Made by a program: the position numbers and the translations under genes. DNA of 32,000 bases from Acaryochloris marina MBIC11017 (GTDB lineage: Bacteria; Cyanobacteriota; Cyanobacteriia; Thermosynechococcales; Thermosynechococcaceae): positions 690,001 to 722,000 of the forward strand of contig NC_009925.1 in assembly GCF_000018105.1 (NCBI RefSeq), written 5' to 3'. Each line of letters begins with the position of its first letter. Position 1 is the stretch's first letter. The notes beneath the pieces were generated by a model that was given only the letters and a program-made list of their open reading frames with translations, was not told the DNA's origin and ran no database searches. Below, piece after piece: positions 1 to 22,932 of the stretch.

Positions 1-231
1 GACACCCTGTGTTATCGCCGTCAGATCTCTCCTGAAACGATCCAGACCATCCTTCAAGCTCATGTTGAAGGGAGTAGTCTACGAGGACTCTCTCGCATCA
101 CGGGTGTAGCGTATAACACTTGTGTGAGTGTGGTTCGTTCAGCGAGTCATAAATCCCAAATGATTCACAATGGGGAAGTTCAGGCCGTTGCGACCGACGT
201 CATTAATGCAGATGAGTTGTGGTCCTTTGTC

Positions 232-238
232 AAAAAAA
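232..238 (+). promoter_or_regulatory. A7 slippery run, candidate programmed -1 frameshift site joining the two IS1 transposase frames
   Basis: The sequence gtc aaa aaa agc sits right after the DELWSFV motif. The upstream frame stops 27 nt later at 265..267, and the downstream frame is open across the run in the -1 phase. Confidence 0.6.
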
Positions 239-686
239 GCAAAAGCACTGTGAGCCGAAGGAGTTGAGGGTAGGCGACTGCTGGATAGCATTGAGTCTTG
301 CGAAAGAGAGTGGTCTCGTGCTCAGTGGCCGTATTGGCAAACATACCGACGAGCTAGCTCAAGAATTGATTGAAAATACTGAGGGCAAAACCGCCTGTCA
401 TCATTGGCAAACGGATGGTTGGGAAGGGTACGCACGACAATTACCCGATGAGGTCGTCCATGAAGTGAGTAAAGCCCTGACCCAACGCTTAGAGCGGACC
501 AATGGCATCGTGCGTCAGCAGACCGGGCGTTGGCATCGACGACAGAATAAATTTGGCAAAGTCTGGCAACAGAGTGCGATGACTTTAAGATTGGTGCTGA
601 GCTATTTCAACTGGATTTGGTGCCACTCTCGATTCAAGAACACGGCTGCCCAACGAGCTGGATTGACGGAGCGTCCTTGGAGATGG

Positions 687-694
687 CAAGACTT
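687..694. repeat. Target-site duplication (caagactt), left copy, of the IS256-family element
   Basis: An identical 8-mer is present at 2041..2048, immediately outside the opposite terminal inverted repeat. Confidence 0.8.
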
Positions 695-2040
695 GAGAGT
701 GTTTAGATTTTTGTGTAAGCAGCAGTGTATTCAATAGTTGAATCGTGTTGGGAACAGAATAGCAAAATGGGACAGCGCCGCCTTCCAATTCAGAATTGGT
801 CTGGTCCATCGCTTCGAAATATTCCTCATCGCTAGAAACATCAATTTGTAGACAGACTCTTCATTAGGGAAAACCGCTTTGGTCTTAATCACCTTTCTCA
901 GTGAGCGGTTGAGCGACTCAATGGCATTGGTGGTGTAGATAACCTTACGGATGGCCATTGGGTATTGAAACAACGGGGCAACATTATCCCAATGTCGTAT
1001 CCAGATTTGGCTAATGCCAGGATACGTCTCGTCCCATTTATGGGCAAATGCATCCAACGCAGCCTCAGACTCTTCCAAAGTGGCCGCTTGGTAAATGGGC
1101 TTGAGGTCTGCAGCTACGGCTCGACTTTCCTTCCACGGCACATGGCGAAGGCTATTACGAATAAGATGGACAATACAAACCTGCACCTGGGTCTGAGGGT
1201 AGACCGACTCAATCGCTTGAGGAAAACCTTTGAGTCCATCACAGCAAGCAATCAAGATATCCTGAGTTCCTCGATTTTTAAGGTCTGTGAGCACCGAAAG
1301 CCAGAATTTTGCTCCCTCTCGTTCAGCGGCTCCTATCCATAATCCCAACAGTTCCTTGTTGCCCTCCACAGTCACTGCCAAAGCGACATAGACAGCTCGC
1401 TTGCTGACTTGACCATTGACTTTGATGTTCACATACAGCGCATCAAGATAGACAATCGGATACACCTCATCCAGCGGCCTTGAACGCCAGTCTTTGACCT
1501 CTTCCATGACGCTATTGATGACGTCACTAATCAGAGCTTCAGAGATATTGGCCCCATACAGCTCCACCAATTGGGCTCGAATATCACGGGTGGTCATGCC
1601 CCGAGCATATAAGGCGATGATTTTCTCATCGAGCCCTGCGATGCGTCGCTGGCCTTTAGGCACCAGGACAGGCTCAAACTCGCCGCAACGGTCACGAGGA
1701 ATCGATAGGTCCATCTCTCCTTGTTCAGACTGGACGGTCTTTTTCGAGTAACCATTGCGACTATTTCTGGGGCCATTAGAATTCTCATCACCTGACTGAT
1801 CGTTGGAGGATTGCTGCAGGTGATGAGTCAATTCACCTGCAAGGGCTCGTTCCACTAGGCGTTTGCTGAGTCGTTTAAGCAGTCCTGATTCGCCCAGAAT
1901 ATCTTCCGGTTGAGGGTTCTCTCCGATGAGTTCATCTAACAGTTCATCGACTCGATTGGGAGCTTTTTTCTTTCTAGACATCGTACGGTCTCCTGATGTG
2001 TTTGGATCCTAGACCGCTTACACAAAACTCTGAACAGTCC
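695..2040 (-). mobile_element. IS256-family insertion sequence, apparently intact (about 1346 bp)
   Basis: It has imperfect terminal IRs of about 26 bp: 695..720 gagagtgtttagatttttgtgtaagc versus the reverse complement of 2016..2040, ggactgttcagagttttgtgtaagc. It carries a single 416-aa transposase ORF and is flanked by the 8-bp direct repeat caagactt. The boundary is ambiguous by 1 nt. Confidence 0.85.
731..1981 (-). CDS. IS256-family (mutator-type) transposase
   Basis: The 416-aa ORF begins MSRKKKAPNRVDELLDELI...GLLKRLSKRLVERALAGELTHHL and contains YLDALYVNIK...ACCDGLKGFPQAIESVYP...QVCIVHLIRNSL, the typical IS256 transposase pattern. Confidence 0.9.
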   Translation of the reverse strand: MSRKKKAPNRVDELLDELIGENPQPEDILGESGLLKRLSKRLVERALAGELTHHLQQSSNDQSGDENSNGPRNSRNGYSKKTVQSEQGEMDLSIPRDRCGEFEPVLVPKGQRRIAGLDEKIIALYARGMTTRDIRAQLVELYGANISEALISDVINSVMEEVKDWRSRPLDEVYPIVYLDALYVNIKVNGQVSKRAVYVALAVTVEGNKELLGLWIGAAEREGAKFWLSVLTDLKNRGTQDILIACCDGLKGFPQAIESVYPQTQVQVCIVHLIRNSLRHVPWKESRAVAADLKPIYQAATLEESEAALDAFAHKWDETYPGISQIWIRHWDNVAPLFQYPMAIRKVIYTTNAIESLNRSLRKVIKTKAVFPNEESVYKLMFLAMRNISKRWTRPILNWKAALSHFAILFPTRFNY

Positions 2041-2048
2041 CAAGACTT
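2041..2048. repeat. Target-site duplication (caagactt), right copy, of the IS256-family element
   Basis: It is identical to 687..694. Confidence 0.8.
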
Positions 2049-3107
2049 AGCTTCCTATCCCACACTTTGTTGATGCACAATCGCATGTTTCCTCAACCGA
2101 TTCATTACAGCAGTCGCATCCGCAACTTGCAGCGGTTCTTAGTCCTACCCCAGTTGAGTGTACGTCTGTTATGGTTTCCCATTCTTAAGCACTGGCTTTC
2201 AGAAGAATTCAAGACAGGCCATGGCAATCGAGCCTATCGCCGAGCCCGCCTCAAACGCACCATTGATGGCTATGTGGTGATGGCCGTTGACCGCACCCAA
2301 TGAAAGGGACGTAATCTGATGATGGTGACAGTGGTGTGGGGTAAACATGCCTTGCCCGTGTATTGGGCACCATTGCCCAAATCAGGCAGTAGTAGTCTCA
2401 AACAGCAACTCCGTTTGTTGAAAACGGCTCTAAAAATCTTCAAACCTTATCCAGTTGTGGTACTAGCAGACCGAGATTTCCACAGTCCTAAACTGGCTCT
2501 GTGGCTGAGCCAACGACAGGTTGAGTTTGTGCTCAGGCAAAAGAAGAGTGCTTATGTCCAGCTCCAAGGTGAAGTAGACTATCAACCCCTCAAAGAGAGA
2601 GGATTTGCCCCAGGCCAGAAAGGTTTCCTTTGCGATGTCTATTGGGGAAAGCGAGACCAGTTAGGGCCGTTTAACCTCGCGTTTTACTGGAAGCGACAGT
2701 ATCGGGGCAAGGGGGGAAAAGATCCTTGGTTTATCATGACAAGTCTGCCAACCCTGGAGCAGGCTCTCTCGCTTTACGCTTGCCGATGGGGAATAGAGAT
2801 GATGTTCAAAGACTGTAAGAGTGGGGGATACAATCTCGAACGAACGAAAGTCAATGATGCTCGTTTTCTAGCTTTGGTACTGGTGATGGCGATGGCCTAT
2901 TGTTTGGCAACGCTTGCTGGCTATGGATTGAAAAAATTGAAAGTCAACCACTATGTTGCTCGGCTCAATGAGCACTCTCGACGGCGGCCTCGACACAGTG
3001 ACTTTGGCACGGCGTTGTATGGACACTTATGGTGTTGTGGCATGGAGGTCTGGACTTTATTAGCCACTGAATTAATGCAACTGAAACCCCATAAACGACT
3101 CAATTAG
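2043..3107 (+). pseudogene. IS4-family DDE transposase, N-terminally truncated and carrying an in-frame TGA (2301..2303)
   Basis: Track ORFs 2067..2303 and 2319..3107 are in the same frame, separated only by a TGA in AVDRTQ*KGRNL, where related transposases as I recall them have W (TGG). The IS4 signature Y(2)R(3)E(6)K is present as YACRWGIEMMFKDCK. Recognisable homology starts near 2085 (PQPIHYSSRIRNLQRFL), so about 50 N-terminal residues are missing. Confidence 0.7.
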
Positions 3108-6734: not shown

Positions 6735-8918
6735 GTGCCATCCCCAGTTTCAGTGAGAAAGATCCTGATTTTAGCGGCCAATCCCAAGAACACCAATCAA
6801 CTTCGGCTGGATGAAGAGGTGCGGGAGATCCAGGAAGGGTTGCAAAGATCGCGTATCCGAGACCAGTTTGAAATTGTATCTCGATGGGCCGTCCGCCCGG
6901 ATGACTTGCGCCGAGCCCTGTTGGACCATGAACCCCAGATTGTGCATTTTAGTGGTCATGGCGCGGGGGCAGGGGGATTAGCGCTGGAAAACAGCTCTGG
7001 TGAAGCGCAACTGGTGAGCAGTGCGGCATTGGCTAGGCTGTTCAAGCTATTTCAAAGAAATGTTGAATGTGTGTTGTTAAATGCCTGCTACTCGGAAGTT
7101 CAGGCGGAGGCGATTCATCAACATATTGGTTATGTCATCGGCATGAGTGAAAAGATTGGGGACCGAGCGGCGATTGAATTTGCGTCAGGGTTTTACGATG
7201 GCTTGGGGGCAAATCGAACCTATGAAGATGCCTTTGAATTTGGTTTATCTGCGATTGATTTAGAAGGGATTCCGGAGACCTCGATCCCGCAACTCAAGAA
7301 ACCCGATTCAACGGATTCCGCTCCGAAGACACCATCCATTCAACCAGAACCTTCACCCAGCGCTCCTGACCAACCTGGCAACAGCAATTTATCACCGATA
7401 GAGAATGCTCGAATCTTTATCAGCTACAAACGGGATGCTACCCCCGATGAACAACTGGCGTTGGAAATCTGTCAGCATCTAAACCAGCGCCATCAGGTCT
7501 TTATTGATCAGAGCATGCCGATTGGTACCTACTGGGCGGAGCGAATTGAGGAAGAATTACGGCAATCGGACTTTTTGATTACGCTGCTGTCGGAGCAATC
7601 GGTGGGGAGTGAGATGGTGCAGGGGGAGATAGAAACTGCCCATCGGCTGAGTAAGGAATTTAAGAAGCCGACTATTTTGCCGATTCGGGTGAAGTATCGA
7701 GAGCCGTTTGCCTATCCCTTGAGTGCCTATCTCGACCCCATTAACTGGGCCTTTTGGGAGCAGGAAGAGGATACGCCGGGTTTGCTGGCGGAGCTGGAGC
7801 AGGCGATCGCCGGTCAAGATCTCTCCATAAATTCTGATACGGCGAAGCGGAGCTTGCTCCTACCTGCGGTTGGAGCAGCAGCGATACCTCAGCCTTTTCC
7901 CTCGGCTCAGTTCCTGGAACTGCCGGAAGGGACGATGGAGCTGGAGTCGAAGTTTTATATCGAGCGGCAGTTGGACCGAATCGCCCTAGAGACGATTGAG
8001 CGGCAAGGGGTGACGGTAACGATTAAGGGGCCGCGCCAGATGGGCAAGAGTTCTTTGCTGAATCGGACCATGCAGGCTGCCCGCAAGGCAGGCAAGCAGG
8101 TTGTGTTTTTGGATTTCCAGCTATTTGAGAGGCAAGCACTCAAAGACTCCGAACTTTTTTTTCGGGAGTTTTGTACTTGGTTATCGGATGAGCTAGACCT
8201 GGACGATCAGGTGGACGCTTACTGGCAGCGGAAGGTGGGCAATGCTCAGCGCTGCACCCGCTATGTTAGCCGCCATATTCTTAAGTCGGTGCAAGCGCCG
8301 ATTGTGCTGGCGATGGATGAAGTGGAGAGTATTTTTGATACGACGTTTCGCAGCGATTTTTTTAGTATGTTGCGCAGTTGGCACAATAACCGTGCTATTC
8401 AGCCCCTGTGGAAGCAGCTAGATCTGGCCTTGGTGACTTCTACGGAGCCGTATCAGTTAATTGCGGACTTGAATCAGTCGCCGTTTAATGTGGGGCAGAT
8501 TATAGAGCTGTGCGACTTTACGCCAGCGGAGGTACATGACCTAAACGAGAGACATGGACTGCCCCTGAATGCGGCTCAGGAGCAAAAGCTTTTAGAGCTG
8601 GTGAATGGTCAGCCCTTTCTAGTGCGCAAAGCTCTGTATCTAGTCGCGAGCCAACAATTTACCGTGGCGGATCTGTTTGCCAAAGCCACGGATGATCGGG
8701 GACCGTTTGGGGCTCACTTGCGGTATCACCTGTTTCGGATGAATAACAAACCCGAGCTGGTGCAAGGGTTGATGCAGGTGATCCGTCGCCCCTGCCAGCT
8801 CGATGAACATCTGTTTTTCCGGCTGCGGGGAGCCGGGTTAGTCCAACGCCAGGGACAGCAAGTGATTCCTCGCTGTCCCCTCTATGCCGCCTATTTTCAG
8901 GAGCATTTGCATGACTAG
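6735..8918 (+). CDS. Three-domain protein: CHAT/caspase-like domain, TIR domain, AAA-like (AAA_35-type, STAND-like) ATPase
   Basis: Residues 8-190: ILILAANP...IVHFSGHG...VLLNACYS gives a His/Cys dyad arrangement, with Cys118 at 7086..7088. Residues 225-340: ARIFISYKRD...SDFLITLLSEQSVGSEMVQGEIETA is TIR_2-like, with Glu298 at 7626..7628. Residues 400-725: Walker A GPRQMGKSS and Walker B VLAMDEVE. The start at 6735 is GTG; an alternative GTG lies at 6753. Confidence 0.75.
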   Translation: MPSPVSVRKILILAANPKNTNQLRLDEEVREIQEGLQRSRIRDQFEIVSRWAVRPDDLRRALLDHEPQIVHFSGHGAGAGGLALENSSGEAQLVSSAALARLFKLFQRNVECVLLNACYSEVQAEAIHQHIGYVIGMSEKIGDRAAIEFASGFYDGLGANRTYEDAFEFGLSAIDLEGIPETSIPQLKKPDSTDSAPKTPSIQPEPSPSAPDQPGNSNLSPIENARIFISYKRDATPDEQLALEICQHLNQRHQVFIDQSMPIGTYWAERIEEELRQSDFLITLLSEQSVGSEMVQGEIETAHRLSKEFKKPTILPIRVKYREPFAYPLSAYLDPINWAFWEQEEDTPGLLAELEQAIAGQDLSINSDTAKRSLLLPAVGAAAIPQPFPSAQFLELPEGTMELESKFYIERQLDRIALETIERQGVTVTIKGPRQMGKSSLLNRTMQAARKAGKQVVFLDFQLFERQALKDSELFFREFCTWLSDELDLDDQVDAYWQRKVGNAQRCTRYVSRHILKSVQAPIVLAMDEVESIFDTTFRSDFFSMLRSWHNNRAIQPLWKQLDLALVTSTEPYQLIADLNQSPFNVGQIIELCDFTPAEVHDLNERHGLPLNAAQEQKLLELVNGQPFLVRKALYLVASQQFTVADLFAKATDDRGPFGAHLRYHLFRMNNKPELVQGLMQVIRRPCQLDEHLFFRLRGAGLVQRQGQQVIPRCPLYAAYFQEHLHD

Positions 8919-11268
8919 ACCTATGTTTACCTCCGGGGGAACGGTCCAAGCTGGAGATGGCATTTATCTAGAACGCAAGGCGGATCAAGAATTACTGGCT
9001 CTCTGTCAGGCAGGGAACTTTGTTTATATCCTTACCCCTCGACAGATGGGGAAATCGAGCTTAATGGTGCGAACGGCTCAAACCTTAGCCAGTCAGGGCA
9101 TTCAATCGGTAATTATTGACTTGACCCAGATTGGCACAGAGTTGGCGGCGGAGCAGTGGTATCTGGGATTCCTAACGCTGATCGAAGAACAGCTAGATCT
9201 AGAGACGGATGTAGAGGCGTGGTGGGAGTCGAAAGCAAAGTTAGGGGTGACCCAACGACTCACGCAGTTTTTTCAAACGGTTCTGCTCAAGGAGATAGAC
9301 AAACCCGTCGTTCTCTTTGTGGATGAAATTGATACGACATTGGGACTGGAGTTTACGGATGATCTATTTACCGCGATTCGTTTTCTCTACGTCGCTCGGG
9401 CTCACCAACCGGAAATGAAGCGGCTCTCAGTGGTGTTGATTGGGGTGGCGACGCCAGGGGATTTGATTCGAGATGCGAGAAGAACGCCGTTTAATATTGG
9501 CCATCGGGTGGATTTAACGGATTTCACCGTTGAGGAGGCAATGCCCTTAGCGGCTGGATTTGGCCTATCGGAAGAAAAGGCGCAAAGACTGTTGGGCAAG
9601 GTGTTGGCTTGGACGGGGGGGCATCCCTATCTGACTCAGCGACTTTGTGAGTCTTTGGTGAATGAGTGGTCTGGCTCCTTAGGGGAAGCTGATGTAGATA
9701 GAGCCGTGGGCCAAACTTTTTTGGGGGAGCGAAGCGAACAGGAGAATAACCTGCAGTTTGTCCGGGATATGCTGACCAAACGGGCCCCTGAGCCAAAGAA
9801 GTTGGTGTTAGAAACCTATCGGCAAATCCATCGGGACAAGGTGGCGGTCGCAGATGAGGAGCAATCTTTAGTTAAGTCTCATCTTAAGCTGGCAGGTGTG
9901 GTGCAGTTGGAAGGGCACCACCTGAAGGTTCGGAATCCGGTTTACCGAGAAGTCTTTGATTCCCAATGGATTCAGGACCATTGGCCCGAGACGCGTTGGC
10001 AGCGGTTAAAGCCAGCATTACCCTATATAGCTGGTTTATCCGCTGTTTTATTTGGCGTTACGGGATTGGCTGTTTATGCCATTGATCAAAGTGATAAAGC
10101 CTTAAAGGCTGAAGCAATAGCTGAGCAGAAGGCTAAAGAAACTGAAGTTGCTCTTGAACAATCTCGCAAAAATGAAACAGCTGCAGAAGCTGCCGCCCGT
10201 GAGGCGCAAAGACAAAAGAAACTGGCGCAAACATCGGCATCCCTGGCAAGGCGACGGTTGCAGCAAGTGAATACTGCCCGCAAGAGGGAAGTCCTAGAAA
10301 GGGAAAAGGCTCAAAAAGCCCAGAAGCTGGCAGAACGCCGACAGAGGGAAGCGGAAGCCCAGAAAAGCATTGCGATTGAGCAAAGAGCAGTTGCAGAACA
10401 GCAAAGAATTGCTGCTGAACAGGCAACGGCAAGAGAAAAAGAACAAACCATAGTTGCACGAAAGGCTACGCAACGCGCAGAAACGCAAGCCAAGTTAGCT
10501 ACTTTGAAAGAACAGGCCGCTTCAGGTTTGTATTGGCTTTCTGCGACGAATCCTACTTTTGGTTTTGTATTAGCCATTGACACAATGAATCAGAGTCAAT
10601 CTATTTCTGATGTTGAGGTAGTTGCCCAATCGGTTCTCCTTAAATCGATCCAACGGGTACAAGAAATAAAGCTGCTGCAAGGCCACCAGGCTGCTGTCTT
10701 GTCGGTGTCCTATAGCCCGGATGGAACGCGCATCGTCAGTGGGAGTTTGGACAATACCGTGCGCATTTGGGATGCCAAGACCGGGCAACCCATCGGAGAG
10801 CCCCTCCAAGGCCACCAGAATACTGTCTGGTCGGTGTCCTATAGCCCGGATGGAAGGCGCATCGTCAGTGGGAGTAGTGACAATACCGTGCGCATTTGGG
10901 ATGCCAAGACCGGGCAAGCGATCGGAGAGCCCCTCCAAGGCCACCAGAATGATGTCTATTCGGTGTCCTTTAGCCCGGATGGAACGCGCATTGTCAGTGG
11001 GAGTAGGGACAAGACCGTGCGCATTTGGGAAGTTGGCCCTGAGTCTTTAACTCGATTAGCTTGTGATCGGTTCAGGTTGCATCCCTTACTTCATCAGCCT
11101 GAGAAAGTTACTTCAGATCCATCTATTATTGAGGCAGCCATCCGTTCCAAGGCGGTTTGCAAACAACATTTCCCTGCTTGGGATTCCTACCGAGCATCCC
11201 AACCCGGATTCCCTAAATGGCTATTCAGTCGTTTCCAACAACTTTTGGCCGATTGGCTCAACACTTAA
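8911..11268 (+). CDS. AAA-like (AAA_35-type) ATPase / single TM helix / long coiled coil / WD40 repeats
   Basis: Walker A is TPRQMGKSS (Lys codon 9052..9054) and Walker B is VLFVDEID. A hydrophobic helix ALPYIAGLSAVLFGVTGLAVYAI maps to 10015..10083. An A/E/K/Q/R-rich segment of about 140 aa maps to 10090..10521. Three GH...WD units start at 10681. The ATG at 8911 overlaps the upstream stop (ATGACTAG); an in-frame ATG at 8884 is the alternative start. Confidence 0.8.
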   Translation: MTRPMFTSGGTVQAGDGIYLERKADQELLALCQAGNFVYILTPRQMGKSSLMVRTAQTLASQGIQSVIIDLTQIGTELAAEQWYLGFLTLIEEQLDLETDVEAWWESKAKLGVTQRLTQFFQTVLLKEIDKPVVLFVDEIDTTLGLEFTDDLFTAIRFLYVARAHQPEMKRLSVVLIGVATPGDLIRDARRTPFNIGHRVDLTDFTVEEAMPLAAGFGLSEEKAQRLLGKVLAWTGGHPYLTQRLCESLVNEWSGSLGEADVDRAVGQTFLGERSEQENNLQFVRDMLTKRAPEPKKLVLETYRQIHRDKVAVADEEQSLVKSHLKLAGVVQLEGHHLKVRNPVYREVFDSQWIQDHWPETRWQRLKPALPYIAGLSAVLFGVTGLAVYAIDQSDKALKAEAIAEQKAKETEVALEQSRKNETAAEAAAREAQRQKKLAQTSASLARRRLQQVNTARKREVLEREKAQKAQKLAERRQREAEAQKSIAIEQRAVAEQQRIAAEQATAREKEQTIVARKATQRAETQAKLATLKEQAASGLYWLSATNPTFGFVLAIDTMNQSQSISDVEVVAQSVLLKSIQRVQEIKLLQGHQAAVLSVSYSPDGTRIVSGSLDNTVRIWDAKTGQPIGEPLQGHQNTVWSVSYSPDGRRIVSGSSDNTVRIWDAKTGQAIGEPLQGHQNDVYSVSFSPDGTRIVSGSRDKTVRIWEVGPESLTRLACDRFRLHPLLHQPEKVTSDPSIIEAAIRSKAVCKQHFPAWDSYRASQPGFPKWLFSRFQQLLADWLNT
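10681..11029 (+). repeat. Tandem 129-bp (43-codon) WD40 repeat units, 2.7 copies, about 92% identical at DNA level
   Basis: Units start at 10681, 10810 and 10939. Units 1 and 2 differ at 10 nt, confined to 6 codons. Confidence 0.9.
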
Positions 11269-11504: not shown

Positions 11505-11887
11505 CTATCGATCAGTGCTTTGCTCACTCGCATATCGGATTTGCTGAAGTACATGATCTAGGTGGTGCATAACGTCTGAGTTATGAAAGCGGATCAATCG
11601 AAAACCAAGCTGGTGGAGCTGCTCGGTACGGGCTTCATCATACTTCAGCCGATTGTGGATGTCGCCGTCTAGCTCAATCACTAATCGGCATTGAGGACAG
11701 TAAAAATCGACAATGAACGAACAGCGCGTTGACAGCGGAATTTCAGACCGCTGAGTTGACGTTTTTGCAGTGCTTTCCACAGCTTTTGTTCTGCAGTCGT
11801 CAGATTTAGTCGTAGTCGTCGCGCAGCGGCAACGACTGCTGGGGTCGTGCCGCGAATGCGGTGGTGTTGCGTTTGCTGCTCTCGCAT
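11505..11887 (-). pseudogene. DUF559 (Vsr-like endonuclease fold) protein, frameshifted
   Basis: Two overlapping minus-strand ORFs together give the DUF559 pattern. One reads TAEQKLWKALQKRQLSGLKFRCQR and the other FIVDFYCPQCRLVIELDGDIH...YDEARTEQLHQLGFRLIRFHNSDV. The frame switch lies within about 11715..11731. The likely ATG is at 11887. Confidence 0.7.
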
Positions 11888-13853: not shown

Positions 13854-15647
13854 ATGACCCAACCCTCAACTCTAGTCGACTTACTGCGAGAGCGGTCTCA
13901 GCTCCAGTCTGATTTAACGGCCTATACCTTTTTGGCCGACGGCAAAAACGAATCCGGGACTCTCACCTACGCCACCTTGGATTTGCAAGCTCGGGCAATT
14001 GCAGCCGCAATACAGGCCCTAACCGCCCGAGGCACAAACGTTCTGGTCGTTTATCCCTACGATGCCGGACTCGAATTTGTATCCGCATTTTTTGGCTGTC
14101 TCTATGCCGGGGTGGTAGCGGTTACTGATAATCCCCCCCGGAAACCTGAAGCCATTGCCAAGCTCCAAATTCGGGCGAAAGCCTCGGAAGCCACGGTGTT
14201 GGTTTCCACTGCAGGATTTTTGGAGCATCTGAAAAACCAGATGAAAAAGAATCCCGATTTAGCCCCGTATTTGAATCAATTGACCTGGCTGGCAACGGAT
14301 ACTGTACCCACGGATCAAGCCTCTACCTGGACCCAGCCGGAGTTAGAAACCGATACTCTAGCCTTCCTCCAATACACCTCGGGTTCCACTGGAGATCCGA
14401 AAGGGGTGATGGTTACCCACGGCAATATGCTCCATAACTCCAAGATGATTTATGAGAGCTTTGGCCATTCCGACCAGAGTCAGGGGGTGATTTGGCTGCC
14501 TCTGTTTCACGATATGGGGTTAGTGGGGGGTGTCCTCCAGCCTTTATATGGTGGCTTTCCGGTGACCTTGATGTCGCCGATTGCCCTGATCCAAAAACCG
14601 ATTTTGTGGTTAGAAGCCGTATCTAAATATGGGGCAACCACCAGCGGTGGACCCAACTTTGCCTACGATTTACTCTGCCAGAAGGTGAAGCCGAAGCAGC
14701 GAGACCAGCTAGATCTAAGTAAATGGGAAGTGGCCTTTTCCGGGGCAGAACCGATCAAAGCTGATACCCTCGATAAGTTTGTGGACTTCTTTGGTCCCTG
14801 TGGCTTCCGGCGAGAAGCTTTTTACCCCTGCTATGGTATGGCTGAAACGACCCTCTTTATTTCTGGGGGCCTGAAGTCAGAATCACCCATCGTTCGCTAT
14901 CTCGACAGTACGGCCCTGGCTGACAACAAGGTGGTTCCTGTGGAACCAGAATCTGACAAAGCCCAGGCCATTATCGGCTGTGGCCGCATGTGGTTAGGGG
15001 ATAAGGTTGCGATCGCAAATCCCGATACCCTGACAAAATGTGCGGAAAACCAAGTCGGTGAGATTTGGGTTGCCGGGGATGGCGTCGGCAAAGGGTACTG
15101 GAACAGACCCGACGTCACCGCCGAGGCCTTTCAGGCCCACTTAGCCGATACGGGCGAAGGACCCTTCCTGCGAACCGGAGATTTAGGCTTTGTCCAGGAT
15201 GGCGAAGTTTATATCACGGGCCGGATTAAAGATTTGATGATTATCTGGGGCCGAAACCAATATCCCCAGCTCATTGAACAGACCGTGGAGCAATGCCATC
15301 CCGCTCTCCGGCCTAATCATGGTGCCGCTTTTTCCATTCCCCTCAATGGTGAAGAGCATTTGGTGATTGTCCATGAGGTGGAACGAAACTTTTTCCGACG
15401 CCTCCCCGTCGAAGAGGTTATCGGAGCGATTCGTTTAGCCATTGCCGAGGACCATATGGCTGAAGTCTATGCCGTATTGCTCCTCAAGCCAGGTGCAATT
15501 CCCAAAACCTCTAGTGGCAAAATTCAACGCCGGGCTTGTCGGACTAAATTTTTAGAAAGCAGCTTTCAACCTGTTGCCGAGTGGAAACAAGAAACCCAAG
15601 GCAATATCTCCGATTTGATGGCGCCTATGGCTGCGAATCAACCGTAA
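13854..15647 (+). CDS. Fatty acyl-AMP ligase (FAAL, FadD32-like adenylating enzyme), copy 1
   Basis: The N-terminus is LVDLLRERS...TYATLDLQARAIAAA...GLEFVSAFFGCLYAGVVAV. Further motifs are LAFLQYTSGSTGDPKGVMVTHGN, GGPNFAYDL, YGMAETTL and IPKTSSGKIQR. Confidence 0.85.
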   Translation: MTQPSTLVDLLRERSQLQSDLTAYTFLADGKNESGTLTYATLDLQARAIAAAIQALTARGTNVLVVYPYDAGLEFVSAFFGCLYAGVVAVTDNPPRKPEAIAKLQIRAKASEATVLVSTAGFLEHLKNQMKKNPDLAPYLNQLTWLATDTVPTDQASTWTQPELETDTLAFLQYTSGSTGDPKGVMVTHGNMLHNSKMIYESFGHSDQSQGVIWLPLFHDMGLVGGVLQPLYGGFPVTLMSPIALIQKPILWLEAVSKYGATTSGGPNFAYDLLCQKVKPKQRDQLDLSKWEVAFSGAEPIKADTLDKFVDFFGPCGFRREAFYPCYGMAETTLFISGGLKSESPIVRYLDSTALADNKVVPVEPESDKAQAIIGCGRMWLGDKVAIANPDTLTKCAENQVGEIWVAGDGVGKGYWNRPDVTAEAFQAHLADTGEGPFLRTGDLGFVQDGEVYITGRIKDLMIIWGRNQYPQLIEQTVEQCHPALRPNHGAAFSIPLNGEEHLVIVHEVERNFFRRLPVEEVIGAIRLAIAEDHMAEVYAVLLLKPGAIPKTSSGKIQRRACRTKFLESSFQPVAEWKQETQGNISDLMAPMAANQP

Positions 15648-15720
15648 TTTAAAGTTCCCCGAATATTGTCCTCCTTGGTGCAAGCCAAGGACCGATTGTC
15701 TACCCCAAAACTCCAGTGCT

Positions 15721-16494
15721 ATGAATGTTCTCAGTCAACCGGATGGAAATTGGCAGGCCAAAATTCGCCAACGCTTTCTCAAGGCAGCCGAGCAGCTCCT
15801 GCGGCGATTCGAAGGTCTGATCGAGTCCCACTCCCTCGTGGGCAATACGCCGTTTATCGAGGCTCAATCGTTCCCCTGGGTCAAGCAGCTAGAGCATAAC
15901 TGGCCCACCATTGCTCAAGAATTAGATGACATTCTTCAGTATCAGGATGAGCTGCCCAATTTCCAAGATTTATCGCCGGATCAGTATCGTCTCACCCAAG
16001 ACGATCGCTGGAAAACCTTTTTCTTCTATGCCTTTGGCGTCAAAGCGGCCCAAAACTGCGCCCGCTGTCCTCAAACCAGCCAGCTGATTGAATCGATTCC
16101 GGGGATGAAAACGGCCTTTTTCTCGATTCTGTTGCCCCAGAAACATATTCCCGAGCATTGCGGGGTCTTTAAAGGGGTCGTCCGGTACCATCTGGCTCTG
16201 AAAGTGCCTCAACCGGAGACCCAATGTCGTCTCCGGGTGGCGGACCAAATTCGCCATTGGCAACAGGGACAAGGGTTAATCTTTGATGATCGATTTCCCC
16301 ATGAGGTTTGGAACGATAGCGACGAGGTGCGGGTCGTCCTGATTATTGATGTGGTCCGTCCTCTTCAGTTCCCCGTCTCCCTCCTCAATCAGACCCTGAT
16401 TCGCCTGATTTCCTGGTCGCCCTTTGTCCAGGATGCTAAAAAGCTGCAAAACCAGTGGGAAAAGCGCTTAGGTGCCATTATGAAATCCCACTAA
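15721..16494 (+). CDS. Aspartyl/asparaginyl beta-hydroxylase family (AspH/LpxO-like Fe(II)/2OG oxygenase), paralog 1
   Basis: It reads CPQTSQLIESIPGMKTAFFSILLPQKHIPEHCG...VRYHLALKVP...IFDDRFPHEVWNDSDEVRVVLIIDVVRP. I recall human ASPH as HTGPTN...FDDSFEHEVW, which this resembles. Confidence 0.75.
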   Translation: MNVLSQPDGNWQAKIRQRFLKAAEQLLRRFEGLIESHSLVGNTPFIEAQSFPWVKQLEHNWPTIAQELDDILQYQDELPNFQDLSPDQYRLTQDDRWKTFFFYAFGVKAAQNCARCPQTSQLIESIPGMKTAFFSILLPQKHIPEHCGVFKGVVRYHLALKVPQPETQCRLRVADQIRHWQQGQGLIFDDRFPHEVWNDSDEVRVVLIIDVVRPLQFPVSLLNQTLIRLISWSPFVQDAKKLQNQWEKRLGAIMKSH

Positions 16495-16557
16495 TCCAAT
16501 TCTGGTGTCTGGCTCAGGCATCAAGATTAAGGATTTATTAATATAGTCAACACATGA

Positions 16558-17304
16558 TTGGAAGATAGTCCCGTGAAAGAATTTCTCGAAACTTTAATGC
16601 GTCAGCATATTGGGGGTTTGGTTTCGCGTTCGTCCCTCGTGGGCCACCAAACCTTCTTTGACCCCAGTATCTTTAACTGGATTCCGCTTTTGGAAAAAAA
16701 CTGGCGCACCATTCGCCAGGAACTAGAACAGGTTCTCCAATATAAAGAGGCATTGCCCAATTTTGAAGAATTGGTGGAGTACGATGCCGACCTCACCAAA
16801 GATACCCAGTGGAAAATGTTCGCCTTCTACGCCTATGGGATTAAGGCCGAAAAAAATTGTGATCGCTGCCCGGAAACCACCCGGCTGATCGAACAAATCC
16901 CCGGGTTAAAAACCGCTTTTTTCTCGATCTTGCTGCCTCACCAGCGCATCCCCCCCCACCGAGGCCCTTATAACGGAGTGCTGCGTTATCACCTCGGCCT
17001 GATGGTCCCAGAGGCCACGGACCAATGCGGCATCCGCGTTGGCAAGGATATTCGCCATTGGCAAGAAGGCCAAAGCCTCGTCTTTGATGATTCCTTCGAA
17101 CATACGGCCTGGAACGACACGGATAGTGTCCGCGTCGTCCTGTTTTTGGATGTGGTCCGACCCGTCAAATTTCCTATTTCTCTGTTGAATCAAGCCGTGA
17201 TTCAGCTCTTTTCTTTGTCCCCCTATATTCAAGGCGCAGCCGCCAATCAAAAGAAGTGGGACAAGCGATTGGATGCCGTATTGGCAGCGAAAGGGACCCA
17301 ATAG
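16558..17304 (+). CDS. Aspartyl/asparaginyl beta-hydroxylase family oxygenase, paralog 2
   Basis: It reads CPETTRLIEQIPGLKTAFFSILLPHQRIPPHRGPYNGVLRYHLGLMVP...VFDDSFEHTAWNDTDSVRVVLFLDVVRP. The start is uncertain: TTG 16558, GTG 16573 or ATG 16597. Confidence 0.75.
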   Translation: MEDSPVKEFLETLMRQHIGGLVSRSSLVGHQTFFDPSIFNWIPLLEKNWRTIRQELEQVLQYKEALPNFEELVEYDADLTKDTQWKMFAFYAYGIKAEKNCDRCPETTRLIEQIPGLKTAFFSILLPHQRIPPHRGPYNGVLRYHLGLMVPEATDQCGIRVGKDIRHWQEGQSLVFDDSFEHTAWNDTDSVRVVLFLDVVRPVKFPISLLNQAVIQLFSLSPYIQGAAANQKKWDKRLDAVLAAKGTQ

Positions 17305-17377
17305 CGCCGTGACAGATCATGGTGTACATTGGCTGGAGTGTTAATGCGCCCGATTGTTGATTTCTAAGCCCTAACTT

Positions 17378-18160
17378 ATGAGTGCATTGAGCCAGTTTTA
17401 CACCGATTTCAAAACCAAAAACCGTGAGGTTGCCCTCAAAGCAGGGGAAGGCTTGTTGCGTCAGTTGGAGCGCATCATTCGAACCTCTTCCCTAGTGGGC
17501 AACTCAACCTTCTTCGATCCTGATCAGTTTGAATGGGTCAAAACCTTCGAAGATAACTGGCAGGTGATTCGGAAGGAACTCGATGAGATTCTCAAATATA
17601 GAGACGACCTGCCGAATTTCCAAGATATTTCCCCGGATCAGTACAACATAACCAATGATCAGCGCTGGAAAACCTTTTTCTTCTATGCCTATGGGGTGAC
17701 GGCAGAGCAAAACTGCCGCCTCTGCCCGGAAACGGCCAAGCTGTTGTCCAGTATCCCCGGGGTTAAAACGGCTTTTTTCTCGATTTTGCTGCCCCAAAAG
17801 CAAATCCCGCCCCACCGAGGTCCCTTTAATGGCGTGTTGCGCTACCATTTGGGCTTGATCATCCCTGAGGCTGCCTCAGACTGTGGGATTCGGGTGGGAG
17901 ACGATGTCCGCCATTGGCAAGAAGGCAAAAGCCTCGTGTTCGATGACTCCTTCGAGCATGAAGCCTGGAATAATACCGATGAAGTTCGGGTGGTCCTCTT
18001 TGTCGATATTGTCCGTCCCCTCAAATTCCCTGCGTCCCTGCTGAATCAATTTATTATTCAGCTGATTGCCTGGTCTCCCTATATCAAGGATGCCGAAACC
18101 AATCAAAAGAAATGGGACCAGCGGTTACAAGGGCTGTTCAAATCGAAAACGAATTCATAA
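17378..18160 (+). CDS. Aspartyl/asparaginyl beta-hydroxylase family oxygenase, paralog 3
   Basis: It reads CPETAKLLSSIPGVKTAFFSILLPQKQIPPHRGPFNGVLRYHLGLIIP...VFDDSFEHEAWNNTDEVRVVLFVDIVRP. Confidence 0.75.
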   Translation: MSALSQFYTDFKTKNREVALKAGEGLLRQLERIIRTSSLVGNSTFFDPDQFEWVKTFEDNWQVIRKELDEILKYRDDLPNFQDISPDQYNITNDQRWKTFFFYAYGVTAEQNCRLCPETAKLLSSIPGVKTAFFSILLPQKQIPPHRGPFNGVLRYHLGLIIPEAASDCGIRVGDDVRHWQEGKSLVFDDSFEHEAWNNTDEVRVVLFVDIVRPLKFPASLLNQFIIQLIAWSPYIKDAETNQKKWDQRLQGLFKSKTNS

Positions 18161-18173
18161 TCCTGTAGTCAGG

Positions 18174-20054
18174 ATGGAGTATAACGTGGCTGAAACAACC
18201 AATTGGGACGCCAAGGTCGAAGGAACCTGTCCGCCAAAGGTAGACAGTTTGGTGGATCTGCTCCGCTATCGAGCGACTCACCAGCCAGACCATAAAGGCT
18301 TTACCTTTCTCGTCGATGGTGAAGACGAAACCCTCCATCTCACCTATGCAGAGCTGGATGCCAAAGCCCGTGCGATCGCAGCTGCGTTACAGTCGGCCTG
18401 TCAACCGGGTGATCGAGCCCTATTGGTTTATCAGCCTGGATTAGAATATGTGGCCGCTTTCTTTGGCTGCCTCTATGCGGGCGTCACGGCAGTCCCCATT
18501 TATCCACCCCGTCCGAATCGCTCCCTGATGCGATTGCAGAGTGTGATCGCGGACTCCCAAGCCATTTTTGCCCTGACCACCTCTCAAATTCTGTCGAAGC
18601 TAGAACGACAGTTGATTGATGCCCCAGAGTTAAGGGCCCTAAAGTGGTTGGCCACTGATAGTCTTAGCGTCACCGAACCTCGTCAAGCTTGGCAAGAGAT
18701 TCATCCCCAAGGTCAAGATTTAGCCTTTCTTCAATACACCTCTGGCTCAACCGCAACGCCCAAAGGGGTGATGATTACCCATCACAATCTGTTGCAGAAC
18801 CTGGCGCTGATTCATCAATGCTTTGAGCATAGTTCTCAGTGCCAAGGCGTGATTTGGCTACCGCCCTACCACGATATGGGCTTGATCGGCGGGATTTTGC
18901 AGCCTTTATACGGCGGGTTCCCCGTGGCCCTGATGTCTCCCTTTATGTTTTTACAGAGTCCCATTCGCTGGCTGCAAGCCATTTCTCGCTATCGGGCGAC
19001 CACCAGTGGGGGACCAAATTTTGCCTACGATTTATGTTTGCGCAAGATCAAGCCAGAACAGATTGAAACCCTAGATCTAAGCTCCTGGCGGGTGGCCTTT
19101 AATGGCGCAGAACCCATCAGTGCTCAAACCCTCGAAGACTTTGCCACCAAGTTTGCATCCTGTGGATTTCGGCCTGAAGCCTTTTTCCCCTGTTATGGCC
19201 TTGCCGAAGCCACCCTGATCGTTTCTGGGGGACAGAGACAGGCTAAACCTGCGCTTAAAACGGTCCAAGGGGCAGCCTTAGAACAACATCAAGTCGTCTC
19301 TGCTCACTTAGGAGATACAGATGCTCGCACCTTAGTGGGCTGCGGTACTGCTCTCCAAGGCCAAGAAATTGTGATCGCCAATCCTGAAACCCTCCAACAA
19401 TGTTCAGCCGAAGAAGTCGGCGAAATTTGGGTGTCTGGCCAAAGCATTGCCCAGGGATACTGGCGGCAATCGGAAGTATCTGGGGAAACCTTTCAGGCCC
19501 ATTTGGCCGATACCGGAGCTGGCCCCTTTTTACGCACCGGAGACTATGGCTTTTTGGTGGGTTCCGAGCTGTTTGTGACCGGACGCCTAAAGGACGTGAT
19601 TATCATCAATGGCCGCAATCATTATCCCCAGGACATTGAGTTGACCGTCGTCCAAAGCTATCCGGGGATTCGACCCAATTGTGCTGCAGCGTTTTCGATT
19701 ACGGAAGCCGGGGAAGAACGGCTAGTCGTAGTGGCGGAATTGGAGCGGAACTATATCAATCGCTATCAAAAAAATGGCAAGAAGCCCTCTTCCCAACCGC
19801 CTCAGCTCAATAATTTTGTCCCCCCCACCAGCCTGACTGAGGAATCAGAACCCGCTGCCGTCGAAAAAGATATTCTCACTCAAATCCGTCGAGCCGTTGC
19901 CAAAGACCATGACCTGCAGATTCATGCCCTGCTGCTGCTCAAACCCGGCAGTATTCCCAAGACCTCTAGTGGTAAAATCCAGCGGTTTACCTGTAGAGCC
20001 AAGTTTCTAGAGGGAGACCTAGAGAGCGTGGCCAAGAGTGTGCCCCGCGCCTAA
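18174..20054 (+). CDS. Fatty acyl-AMP ligase (FAAL), copy 2
   Basis: It reads LVDLLRYRATHQPDHKGFTFL...LTYAELDAKARAIAAAL...GLEYVAAFFGCLYAGVTAVPIYPPRPNRS, then LAFLQYTSGSTATPKGVMITHHN and IPKTSSGKIQR. The ATG at 18174 (MEYNV) avoids overlap with the upstream hydroxylase; the track start at 18066 is rejected. Confidence 0.85.
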   Translation: MEYNVAETTNWDAKVEGTCPPKVDSLVDLLRYRATHQPDHKGFTFLVDGEDETLHLTYAELDAKARAIAAALQSACQPGDRALLVYQPGLEYVAAFFGCLYAGVTAVPIYPPRPNRSLMRLQSVIADSQAIFALTTSQILSKLERQLIDAPELRALKWLATDSLSVTEPRQAWQEIHPQGQDLAFLQYTSGSTATPKGVMITHHNLLQNLALIHQCFEHSSQCQGVIWLPPYHDMGLIGGILQPLYGGFPVALMSPFMFLQSPIRWLQAISRYRATTSGGPNFAYDLCLRKIKPEQIETLDLSSWRVAFNGAEPISAQTLEDFATKFASCGFRPEAFFPCYGLAEATLIVSGGQRQAKPALKTVQGAALEQHQVVSAHLGDTDARTLVGCGTALQGQEIVIANPETLQQCSAEEVGEIWVSGQSIAQGYWRQSEVSGETFQAHLADTGAGPFLRTGDYGFLVGSELFVTGRLKDVIIINGRNHYPQDIELTVVQSYPGIRPNCAAAFSITEAGEERLVVVAELERNYINRYQKNGKKPSSQPPQLNNFVPPTSLTEESEPAAVEKDILTQIRRAVAKDHDLQIHALLLLKPGSIPKTSSGKIQRFTCRAKFLEGDLESVAKSVPRA

Positions 20055-20418
20055 AAGAAAATAGCAACTCTTGGAACTTTTGCAGGCAAAAAGTCAGTCT
20101 CAACTTACACACTTATCTCAGGAAGGACATCAGCCATGCTTACCATGAGTCAGTTTCAATTGACGCAACCTTGATCACTTTTCCCCCCTCTGGACTAAGT
20201 TATAACTACCCTATAGCGGCAAGGGAATAGACCGATCAGCGGCATTACTAAGGAGATTGGAACATTTAGTTTCTGAGATTTTAAAGAATGGGCCAATTGA
20301 TTAATCTCTACATGCCACCTTGTTGCTGTTAAATAAATCTTTTATGATGAACCGAAGTTTTAACTTAAATTCACAATTCGGTTTAACCTGTTGTCTAAGC
20401 AATTAGAGTAAAAACAAT

Positions 20419-20874
20419 ATGCCAATCCAGGATAACTATCAAAGCACGGTCGCTGTGGCGGAAGCACAGCCTCAGGGCGCTGTTTCGCCCTTGGAGACTT
20501 CCCCTAAACTAGCAGATATTCAAGCCTGGTTAAAAAAACACTTGGCAACTTCTTTGGAAATGAGTCCAGAGGAAATTGATATCGATGTGGATTTCATTGA
20601 TTACGGAATGAACTCCGTAGAAGTCGTCAATATTTCCGGTGAACTAGAACATTTTCTGGGTCGCCGTTTGGATCCCATGCTGGTTTTAGATTATTCCAAT
20701 ATTCGTGAATTATCAGAGCACCTAGTAACCGATAATGAAGGCAGTTCTCCCACTACTTCAGCATTACCCACAGAAGCCGATGAACTCCTATCCAAATTGG
20801 ATGTACTGAGTGACGATGAAGTGGATGGTCTGCTGAACGCGATGTTGTCAGAGCATAATGTTGCCCATGAGTAA
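20419..20874 (+). CDS. Stand-alone acyl/peptidyl carrier protein (PP-binding) with N- and C-terminal extensions
   Basis: The sequence DVDFIDYGMNSVEVVNISGELEHFLGRRL fits the DxxFxxxGxDS carrier motif, with the candidate phosphopantetheine Ser66 at 20614..20616. The protein is 151 aa with an acidic tail, and the gene overlaps the next gene by 17 nt. Confidence 0.7.
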   Translation: MPIQDNYQSTVAVAEAQPQGAVSPLETSPKLADIQAWLKKHLATSLEMSPEEIDIDVDFIDYGMNSVEVVNISGELEHFLGRRLDPMLVLDYSNIRELSEHLVTDNEGSSPTTSALPTEADELLSKLDVLSDDEVDGLLNAMLSEHNVAHE

Positions 20875-22192: not shown

Positions 22193-22206
22193 TTGGGGGT
22201 GCCCAT

Positions 22207-22878: not shown

Positions 22879-22932
22879 GGGTGAGGGTTCCAAGGCAATT
22901 TCTATCATTCAGGACAACCTTTGAGTTAGCGA

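Follow-up and report, generated by a model that had tools for sequence, protein, structure and literature searches.

Pairs of NOD-like receptors (NLRs) in which one protein senses and the other executes are known from animals (NAIP/NLRC4) and from plants (RGA5/RGA4, RRS1/RPS4 and the NRC network). Bacterial NLR-like immunity has so far been understood through single-chain cytosolic proteins, and WD40 propeller sensors have been described for bacterial signal transduction ATPases with numerous domains (STANDs) (bioRxiv 10.64898/2026.01.04.697583). Bacterial effectors encoded apart from STAND cores are also on record, through EAD adaptors and in ternary MoxR-vWA systems (Kaur et al., 2020, PMC7159879). 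In type IV Thoeris, the TIR product N7-cADPR activates a caspase-like protease (Rousset et al., bioRxiv 10.1101/2024.10.24.620036). Here we describe two overlapping genes of the cyanobacterium Acaryochloris marina MBIC11017, called A and B below, that lie in a chromosomal stretch of 32,000 nucleotides (nt) (NC_009925.1, positions 690,001 to 722,000; hereafter the window). A first-pass annotation, made from the sequence alone, had taken them for a split NLR/STAND conflict module. The split architecture and a STAND/ORC-type fold are borne out; a purely immune nature is not, as shown by relatives with kinase/LuxR, GUN4 and GAF/PAS parts. The pair apparently represents an as yet unnamed, two-gene form of an NLR-type switch for cell death or immunity, which we would explain, with a probability of about 0.6, by a B-triggered co-assembly with A that fires the TIR and CHAT effectors.

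Both genes encode an ATPase of the AAA_35 family (PF14516), which scores 405.5 bits in A and 148 bits in B against a gathering score of 27 bits. The two ATPases are paralogs, as had been claimed, with 34% identity over 238 amino acids (aa) (E=2e-35) and the sequence PRQMGKSSL in each; the suspicion that they might be unrelated can be set aside. A Pfam scan of both proteins agrees with the reported domain content: gene A carries CHAT and TIR N-terminal to its ATPase and no repeats, while gene B has AAA_35 and WD40 and no effector domain. The transmembrane (TM) helix and coiled coil of B were also read correctly, the latter appearing as a long helix in the AlphaFold2 (AF2) model. Gene B corresponds to 'WD-repeat protein [Acaryochloris marina MBIC11017]' (781 aa), with 100% identity over 99% of the length. 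Its open reading frame (ORF) could start with an ATG at 8884 or at 8911; the latter, at -8 relative to the end of A, is preferred because orthologues share the -8 start. The overlap of the second ATG with the first stop codon is therefore real, and it is a conserved feature: the B start, ATG or GTG, lies exactly 8 nt before the end of A in 12 of 16 CHAT-TIR loci, and gene coordinates give the identical overlap in two further loci (L039, L040). This conserved arrangement of start and stop codons implies that A and B are translationally coupled, so that the two proteins would be made together.

The distribution of the pair was surveyed in 32 loci from species-representative genomes and in several more found by exact-protein look-up, with ORFs classified against the domains of A and B. 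Nineteen distinct cyanobacterial loci contain a complete A gene together with the DNA beyond it, and in each of them a B-type AAA_35 gene stands immediately downstream on the same strand. The A gene is CHAT-TIR-AAA_35 in 15 of these loci and CHAT-AAA_35 without TIR in four, and the genes that flank the pairs differ between genomes. The neighbourhood of the two genes, which could have broken down in related genomes, thus holds throughout. One pair lies on a plasmid of Calothrix parasitica (L018), and MBIC11017 itself has a second A gene (P0010, 65% identical) on the same chromosome. In plasmid records, 99 AAA_35 matches fall in 44 records, with an even number (2, 4 or 6) in 24 of the 25 records listed; some pair-bearing plasmids also carry integrases and toxin-antitoxin genes. 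Among 50,697 phage records, no AAA_35 homologue was found. The B module is abundant, with 4,292 matches at E<=1e-30 among 50%-identity cluster representatives. Judged by gene order, the pair is a conserved, obligate and co-inherited unit.

In a neighbour-joining tree built from the 61 AAA_35 domains of all loci, division at the midpoint separates an A clade from a B clade, with every pair giving one member to each; a divergent sub-clade (L017, L021, L022, L027, L028, L045) is present in both halves. Pairwise distances among A modules correlate with those among B modules (r=0.94 for 19 pairs, r=0.74 in the CHAT-TIR subset), and none of 2000 permutations reached the observed value. By their phylogeny, the A and B modules are two old paralogous lineages that co-evolve. 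It is thus highly improbable that A and B are functionally independent neighbours that share an ATPase family by chance, given adjacency at every testable cyanobacterial locus and across phyla within non-syntenic flanks, the conserved overlap, the mirrored trees and the even counts on plasmids. Fused forms, namely 24 B-B tandems, one B-B-B protein and one metagenomic B-TIR-A chain (P0396, 884 aa), lend indirect support to the idea that A and B modules may work together. Of the B-B and B-B-B proteins, which include P0361, P0366 and P0382, one carries a PPC domain, and in another an LptF/LptG-like permease segment separates two B modules.

The ATPase modules themselves have intact motifs. Gene A has the Walker A sequence GPRQMGKSS, Walker B MDEVE and the GxP-like NGQPFL, and gene B has TPRQMGKSS, VDEID and the GxP motif GGHPYL. 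In 44 A-type and B-type sequences, Walker A (GKSS; RQ.GKS.L) and the DE of Walker B are invariant; two divergent A-type genes, L027 and L028, have DN in place of DE. Further columns invariant in both lineages are two arginines after Walker B and a PFN.G motif, as well as G241/P243 (GQPFL / GHPYL) in the helical domain and Y24/R27/D30 (Y[IV]ER..D) before the P-loop, whose equivalence to the canonical GxP and GRE motifs was judged by eye. An AF2 model of the A module, built on the 44-sequence alignment of both lineages, has a mean predicted local distance difference test score (pLDDT) of 92.4 and combines a P-loop core of five strands with a helical bundle and, at its end, a winged helix (helix-strand-strand-helix). 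The B module has the same order of nucleotide-binding domain (NBD), helical domain (HD) and winged-helix domain (WHD) in its AF2 model. The best Foldseek matches of the A module in the PDB are the archaeal ATPases 2qen and 2fna (E ~1e-9, TM-score 0.60-0.65), followed by CED-4, archaeal and eukaryotic ORC/Cdc6, Avs3/Avs4, MalT, Dark and Roq1; the alignment along ORC/Cdc6 is as good as that along CED-4, Avs3/4, MalT, Dark and Roq1. RecA matches in a sequence search of the PDB covered the P-loop only and were inflated by repeated copies, so that fold comparison alone was informative.

The STAND criteria set out by Leipe and co-workers in 2004 reportedly comprise a Walker A GK[ST], a Walker B hhhhD[DE], an NBD-helical-winged-helix module, and GxP and GRE-like motifs. 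They are said to include also membership of a recognised clade (NACHT, NB-ARC/AP-ATPase, MalT/SWACOS or nSTAND) and ligand- or nucleotide-dependent oligomerisation. The ATPases of the pair have the P-loop and the tripartite module and fall outside the recognised clades: the Pfam profile scan gave no NACHT, NB-ARC or nSTAND match for either of them, and their AAA_16 and ATPase_2 matches were weak and below threshold. Because a place in a recognised STAND clade is lacking, we call the module STAND-like and regard it as a separate branch at the STAND/ORC border. As modelled, AAA_35 is a NOD-type module of the STAND/ORC fold class.

Gene A carries the effector domains. The catalytic His of CHAT lies in HFSGHG and the Cys in LNACYS, and both motifs are invariant in 20 of 20 orthologues. 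The TIR domain has a conserved Glu in SEMV..E (SEMVQGE in gene A), invariant in all 16 TIR-bearing orthologues, which we take to be the SARM1-type catalytic Glu (WV.KE). As far as conserved residues can tell, the CHAT His-Cys dyad and the TIR Glu are intact, as an active protease and NADase would need. Full-length homologues of gene A with 59-95% identity occur in many cyanobacteria, and those of full CHAT-TIR-AAA_35 length with 59-65% identity are found in Acaryochloris, Calothrix, Nostoc, Scytonema, Rivularia, Leptolyngbya, Fischerella and other genera. Stand-alone CHAT proteins were seen near some pairs: at L007 4941-6320 and L008 2590-3762, with CHAT domains 53-61% identical to that of A, and at L001 2193-3599, within a few kb of the pair. 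A Peptidase_C14 orthocaspase lies at a similar distance in L044 (8540-10684). These neighbours are hints of extra protease components or substrates.

Gene B is the putative sensor partner. A hydrophobic helix follows its ATPase module in 20 of 20 locus orthologues, and the TM helix is kept in 111 of 120 database homologues, including those of Archangium, Anaerolineae and Aminicenantes. Lysine and arginine are commoner N-terminal of the helix (83 vs 41 proteins, sign test p=2e-4), a bias that fits a B ATPase facing the cytoplasm. Since a single TM helix separates the ATPase from the WD40 array, the array is predicted to be extracytoplasmic, that is periplasmic or lumenal. In keeping with this topology, a tandem-B relative has a PPC domain, of a kind typical of secreted peptidases, after its TM helix and WD40 repeat; sensor-less B-B variants keep a C-terminal TM helix, which fits the predicted topology as well. 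In the AF2 model of gene B (pLDDT 81), residues 362-544 form one continuous helix, followed by two short helices, three blades with pLDDT >90 and a helical cap. The length of the stalk is bimodal among B homologues, at about 62-100 or 150-224 aa. A weak match of the stalk to TolA (E=1e-3) reflects composition and is not taken as a sign of homology, and the idea of a periplasmic disulfide between two cysteines in the B tail was dropped, since cytosolic cyanobacterial proteins have the same cap behind their WD40 arrays. The B module starts at most about 25 residues from the N-terminus in essentially all of the best 150 cluster representatives, the exceptions being tandem-module proteins, so that B-type proteins have no N-terminal effector.

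From these features we propose that A and B may act as a single signalling unit, in which two old paralogs of the STAND-like NTPase module AAA_35 are combined. B would be a single-pass membrane receptor, with its ATPase in the cytoplasm, a TM helix and stalk, and the WD40 propeller across the membrane. A would be a soluble executioner in which the CHAT protease and TIR are joined to the sister ATPase module. A cue sensed by the B propeller would turn the nucleotide-bound module of B assembly-competent, and this module would seed co-assembly with the A module, as NAIP seeds NLRC4. Clustering would then switch on the CHAT protease as well as TIR, which would cleave NAD+ or produce a signal. The cell would stop growing or die, and abortive infection or regulated cell death is the most likely form of this outcome. 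The architecture, pairing, coupling, co-evolution, intact motifs, fold class and membrane anchor are established directly; the A-B contact, the direction of control (seeding or release from repression), the trigger, the topology and the outcome we infer.

A bolder form of this proposal, which we put forward only tentatively, is that AAA_35 pairs are obligate heteromeric NLR-like transmembrane receptors, with a stalked, diversifying WD40 propeller in the periplasm or thylakoid lumen and cytoplasmic templating of a TIR/caspase-like executioner. The cue could come from phage entry, a damaged envelope or an adjacent cell. If true, such a receptor would join the logic of Toll-like receptors (ectodomain, TM helix, TIR) with that of NAIP/NLRC4 in two bacterial genes, and would have swappable inputs (WD40, GUN4, GAF/PAS) and outputs (TIR, CHAT, kinase/helix-turn-helix).

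The control could also run the other way. B might be a brake or tether that caps or sequesters A at the membrane, its loss or displacement freeing A for self-assembly; membrane damage, proteolysis or a shut-off of host translation could cause the release, in an arrangement resembling a guard. There is an analogue in plants, where the sensor RGA5 represses RGA4. Translational coupling would give matched amounts of A and B, as in toxin-antitoxin pairs; the membrane anchor persists even in the sensor-less B-B tandems, and the recurrence of short WD40 arrays suggests that a full propeller may be dispensable. However, B resembles an active switch in retaining its GxP motif and both Walker motifs, and a simple tether would hardly need the roughly 14 diversified WD40 repeats that are kept in most B proteins. 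Pairing as such fails to separate seeding from repression. On balance we consider a role of B as a brake unlikely.

The WD40 array of gene B is unusual. Its repeats have a period of 129 nt and 91% nucleotide identity (Tandem Repeats Finder, TRF). The number of repeats among 121 B homologues peaks at 14, which would form two seven-bladed propellers; gene B has three, a number found in only 3 of the 121. Because the first-type repeat, the last-type repeat and the cap are retained, the array looks like an in-frame contraction by recombination between repeats. Another A. marina genome encodes the paralog P0121, which has at least 12 near-identical repeats whose variation is concentrated at repeat positions 6, 7, 9, 25 and 27, a pattern expected of a diversifying binding surface. 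The WD40 NLRs of the fungal HET/NWD type show the same pattern of repeat diversification. Two ORFs that overlap the array of gene B, at 10570-10944 (-) and 10721-11050 (+), are probably by-products of the repeats.

With three blades rather than the usual 14, the A. marina copy may be impaired. It is possible, though doubtful, that it is a decaying or sensor-impaired paralog and that a second chromosomal pair does the work. In addition to the rarity of three repeats and their near-identity, this would agree with the second A gene P0010, whose close relative in another A. marina strain precedes a B gene with a longer WD40 region, with the longer array of P0121 and with the insertion sequence (IS) elements near the pair. 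Against decay, both ORFs are intact with all catalytic motifs, and the contraction is in frame with both end repeats and the cap preserved. Moreover, short forms persist as intact genes elsewhere, in the close relative P0126 (2 repeats, 741 aa) and independently in P0200, P0234, L006 and L013, and blades from several B chains could complete a propeller in an oligomer.

In the surveyed pairs, outputs lie on the A side and inputs on the B side, so the division of effector and sensor roles between paralogs proposed at first pass extends beyond this locus. The A-side outputs are TIR, CHAT, EAD-TIR and Pkinase with a LuxR-type helix-turn-helix domain (GerE), and some A-type proteins start with EAD7 or EAD9 adaptor domains; the B-side inputs are WD40, GUN4 and GAF/PAS. 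Beyond cyanobacteria, pairs are present in Chloroflexota, Myxococcota, Abditibacteriota and a genome that was deposited as Aminicenantes; overall, they span at least four bacterial phyla. In Anaerolineae, TIR-AAA_35 overlaps B by 8 nt and adjoins SNF2, DUF1156 and DUF499 genes. Archangium gephyra has B followed by TIR-AAA_35, and the genome labelled Aminicenantes has TIR, AAA_35 and B followed by AbiEi_2, with an MmeI-type methylase nearby. On plasmids, an Abditibacteriota locus (L043 7001-11387) has TIR-AAA_35 overlapping a B gene with a GAF/PAS C-terminus and neither WD40 nor TM helix, a Chlorohelix locus (L046 654-7290) has B-WD40 followed by Pkinase-AAA_35-GerE, and a Tolypothrix locus (L045 4894-9549) has CHAT-AAA_35 followed by B-GUN4. 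An Anaerolineales locus (L042 7001-14450) has three ATPases in a row, EAD7-TIR-AAA_35 followed by a 454-aa A-type AAA_35 gene that overlaps B-WD40; the 120-aa N-terminus of the 454-aa protein has no domain assignment, and the locus is maybe an adaptor-linked extension of the pair.

The existence of kinase/LuxR, GUN4 and GAF/PAS variants shows the chassis to be a general input-output signalling device, among whose versions the CHAT-TIR and TIR ones look like conflict systems. A wider alternative follows the same line: the pair could be an envelope or stress signalling or regulated cell-death device of multicellular-type bacteria rather than an anti-phage one, its CHAT-TIR version executing developmental or stress-induced death or kin recognition. 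The sister pairs with kinase outputs or small-molecule-type inputs are in line with this, as are the high conservation of gene A in cyanobacteria, its non-defence neighbours there, the absence from the phage records searched, and a distribution biased to filamentous or social bacteria. Nevertheless, the combination of TIR with a caspase-like protease is a proven anti-phage one in type IV Thoeris (bioRxiv 10.1101/2024.10.24.620036), EAD7 and EAD9 on some A-type proteins link the AAA_35 family to the conflict-system network of PMC7159879, and the contexts outside cyanobacteria include defence islands and plasmids. We therefore regard a device without an anti-phage role as rather improbable.

Our preferred reading, co-assembly triggered by B, has its own weak points. 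A conflict or defence role is something we infer from the effector types and from some defence or mobile neighbours outside cyanobacteria (DUF1156/DUF499/SNF2; AbiEi with an MmeI-type methylase; plasmids with integrases and toxin-antitoxin genes). The expected proximity to defence genes was thus found in part outside cyanobacteria, whereas the neighbours of cyanobacterial pairs, whose pairing itself was upheld, are mostly non-defence genes. Also weighing against the reading are the conservation of gene A, which at ~60-65% identity across orders is unusually high for a defence gene, and the Pkinase/GerE outputs and GUN4 or GAF/PAS inputs, by which the chassis is not intrinsically immune. The structures closest to the ATPase belong to archaeal PF01637-type ATPases and to no canonical NLR clade, the charge bias behind the topology of B is modest, and three blades are unable to close a propeller within one B chain. 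The contact between A and B is likewise a prediction from sequence. The coordinates of the features are given in Table 1.

Table 1. Features of the A/B gene pair; positions count from the first nucleotide of the window.
Feature	Position	Strand	Basis
Gene A, CHAT-TIR-AAA_35, 727 aa, GTG start	6735..8918	+	ORF list and Pfam
CHAT (caspase-like) protease domain, gene A residues 14-166	6774..7232	+	Pfam CHAT E=5e-12; PADLOC 'chat' E=2.6e-24
TIR domain, gene A residues 227-343	7413..7763	+	Pfam TIR_2 E=6e-20
A-type AAA_35 module (NBD, helical domain, winged helix), gene A residues 396-723	7920..8903	+	Pfam E=1.7e-121
ATGACTAG, B start codon over A stop codon, 8-nt overlap	8911..8918	+	sequence reading
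Gene B, putative membrane-anchored sensor partner, 785 aa	8911..11268	+	ORF list, Pfam, AF2
B-type AAA_35 module, gene B residues 10-350	8938..9960	+	Pfam E=4e-43; B clade of domain tree; AF2
Single TM helix IAGLSAVLFGVTGLAVYAI, gene B residues about 370-391	10018..10083	+	Kyte-Doolittle 2.05; orthologue conservation
Helical stalk, A/E/Q/K/R-rich, ~190 aa, gene B	10087..10650	+	AF2
Three near-identical WD40 repeats, contracted array, gene B residues 588-712	10672..11046	+	Pfam, TRF, AF2
Helical C-terminal cap after the WD40 array, gene B	11047..11265	+	AF2; kept after last repeat in long orthologues L007, L009

The window around the pair is no defence island. Its other content comprises IS elements, a lipid-type biosynthesis cluster, a DUF559 fragment and genes of the PLD and cyclic nucleotide (cNMP)-EAL types. 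A scan for promoters and terminators gave nothing above chance. IS genes lie upstream of the pair at 219-3107 (IS1-like, Mutator-family and DDE_Tnp_1 transposases) and an IS1 transposase at 30392-31081, marking the region as recombination-prone. Just downstream of B, a 91-aa ORF at 11505-11780 (-) resembles a DUF559 endonuclease over the C-terminal part of the profile only; in a metagenomic locus unrelated to this one (L040 10724-11092), the pair is likewise followed by a DUF559 gene at a distance of ~2 kb, maybe by coincidence. The co-directional cluster at 13854-23754 (+) encodes two AMP-binding enzymes, an acyl carrier protein (ACP), a class I/II aminotransferase, a histidine phosphatase and a short-chain dehydrogenase/reductase (SDR), with three tandem Asp/Asn beta-hydroxylase paralogs at 15721-18160, and has the look of a biosynthetic pathway whose natural product would be a hydroxylated lipid or of lipopeptide type. 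It is followed by a gene with a partial DNA-methylase-like match (23754-25034). In Archangium gephyra, a CHAT-nSTAND1 gene beside the AAA_35 pair overlaps a 1032-aa ORF with ~12 WD40 repeats (L038 13292-17991). A second split system was considered here and rejected, as the second ORF continues the nSTAND1 profile from position 181; the CHAT-nSTAND1-WD40 locus is either a classical single-chain gene broken by a frameshift or a true split gene.

The judgement at first pass that the pair is no named defence system agrees with database and literature searches. PADLOC-DB 2.0.0 has no named system for it, returning for A only generic chat and TIR matches and one P-loop-only PDC-S01 match, and for B none. 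In NCBIfam, all matches of A and B are far below the cut-offs, those to TIR being weak and sub-threshold, and no Thoeris model of either database reaches threshold for A or B. A pair of paralogous NOD proteins, AAA_35, or a TM helix before the sensor is not described in Kaur 2020, Kaur 2021, Doré 2024, a 2026 STAND survey or a 2025 TIR survey, and an orthocaspase survey does not describe the pair. The full-text literature searched, which covers subscription papers and supplements in part, so that an earlier mention is possible, holds no published name for the pair and no account of it; PF14516 returned no papers, and 'AAA_35' as a term returned only noise.

Three points go beyond the first-pass annotation: the position of the TM helix between ATPase and WD40 repeats, the contracted WD40 array, and the animal, plant and bacterial precedents for split systems. 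To our knowledge, no characterised bacterial STAND reads extracytoplasmic signals, and the conserved TM helix before WD40 raises the possibility of a STAND-type switch that reads signals outside the cytoplasm. The AAA_35 family is large and modular in its inputs and outputs, and its role as a signalling chassis may have received too little recognition in cyanobacteria, Chloroflexota, Acidobacteriota and Myxococcota.

Among known systems, the archaeal PF01637 ATPases 2qen and 2fna resemble AAA_35 most closely in structure, and the weak ATPase_2 match in Pfam points the same way. In contrast to A and B, they are stand-alone proteins with no assigned role, no effector or sensor fusions and no known pairing, and their identity to AAA_35 is 12-14%. 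Single-chain STANDs (Avs1-4, bNACHT and the cyanobacterial Apaf-1-like caspase-STAND-WD40 proteins) share with the pair the NBD-HD-WHD fold, TIR or caspase-like effectors and WD40 sensors. Theirs is one cytosolic chain, whereas A and B are split over paralogs with a TM helix ahead of the sensor; neither this pair nor any surveyed pair has the classical tripartite NLR/Avs architecture in one polypeptide.

The EAD and ternary systems of PMC7159879 likewise have separately encoded, recruited effectors, a similar phyletic bias and the same pool of TIR and caspase effectors, and EAD7 or EAD9 occur on some A-type relatives. Coupling there depends on small Death-like adaptors or MoxR-vWA chaperones, whereas the adaptor proposed here would be a duplicated NTPase module, and AAA_35 is unmentioned in that study. 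Another candidate was 'System 4' of Kaur 2020, an EACC1-caspase system that combines an N-terminal caspase with variable C-terminal domains. It was rejected: no small TM gene precedes A, a 160-bp intergenic gap lies between the EAL gene and A, and 'System 4' is mainly actinobacterial. Type IV Thoeris shares a TIR domain and a caspase-family protease as its killing arm. It consists of two separate proteins, a ThsB-type TIR protein and a caspase-like effector, linked by a diffusible nucleotide, and has no STAND module, while in A the CHAT-TIR part is fused to the ATPase.

The closest functional parallel may be with NAIP/NLRC4 and the paired NLRs of plants. Like these, A and B are two paralogous, linked NOD proteins, with sensing repeats on one and output on the other, and the plant pairs are also genetically linked; co-assembly through the NTPase modules would be expected here by analogy. 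The differences are that A and B use AAA_35 rather than NACHT or NB-ARC, that their genes are co-directional and apparently translationally coupled, that B has a membrane anchor and, by prediction, extracytoplasmic repeats, and that A is devoid of repeats. A widespread pair of sensing and executing paralogs would mean that the sensor/helper arrangement of plants and animals arose in bacteria too, and would offer a simple two-gene model of how one NOD module activates another.

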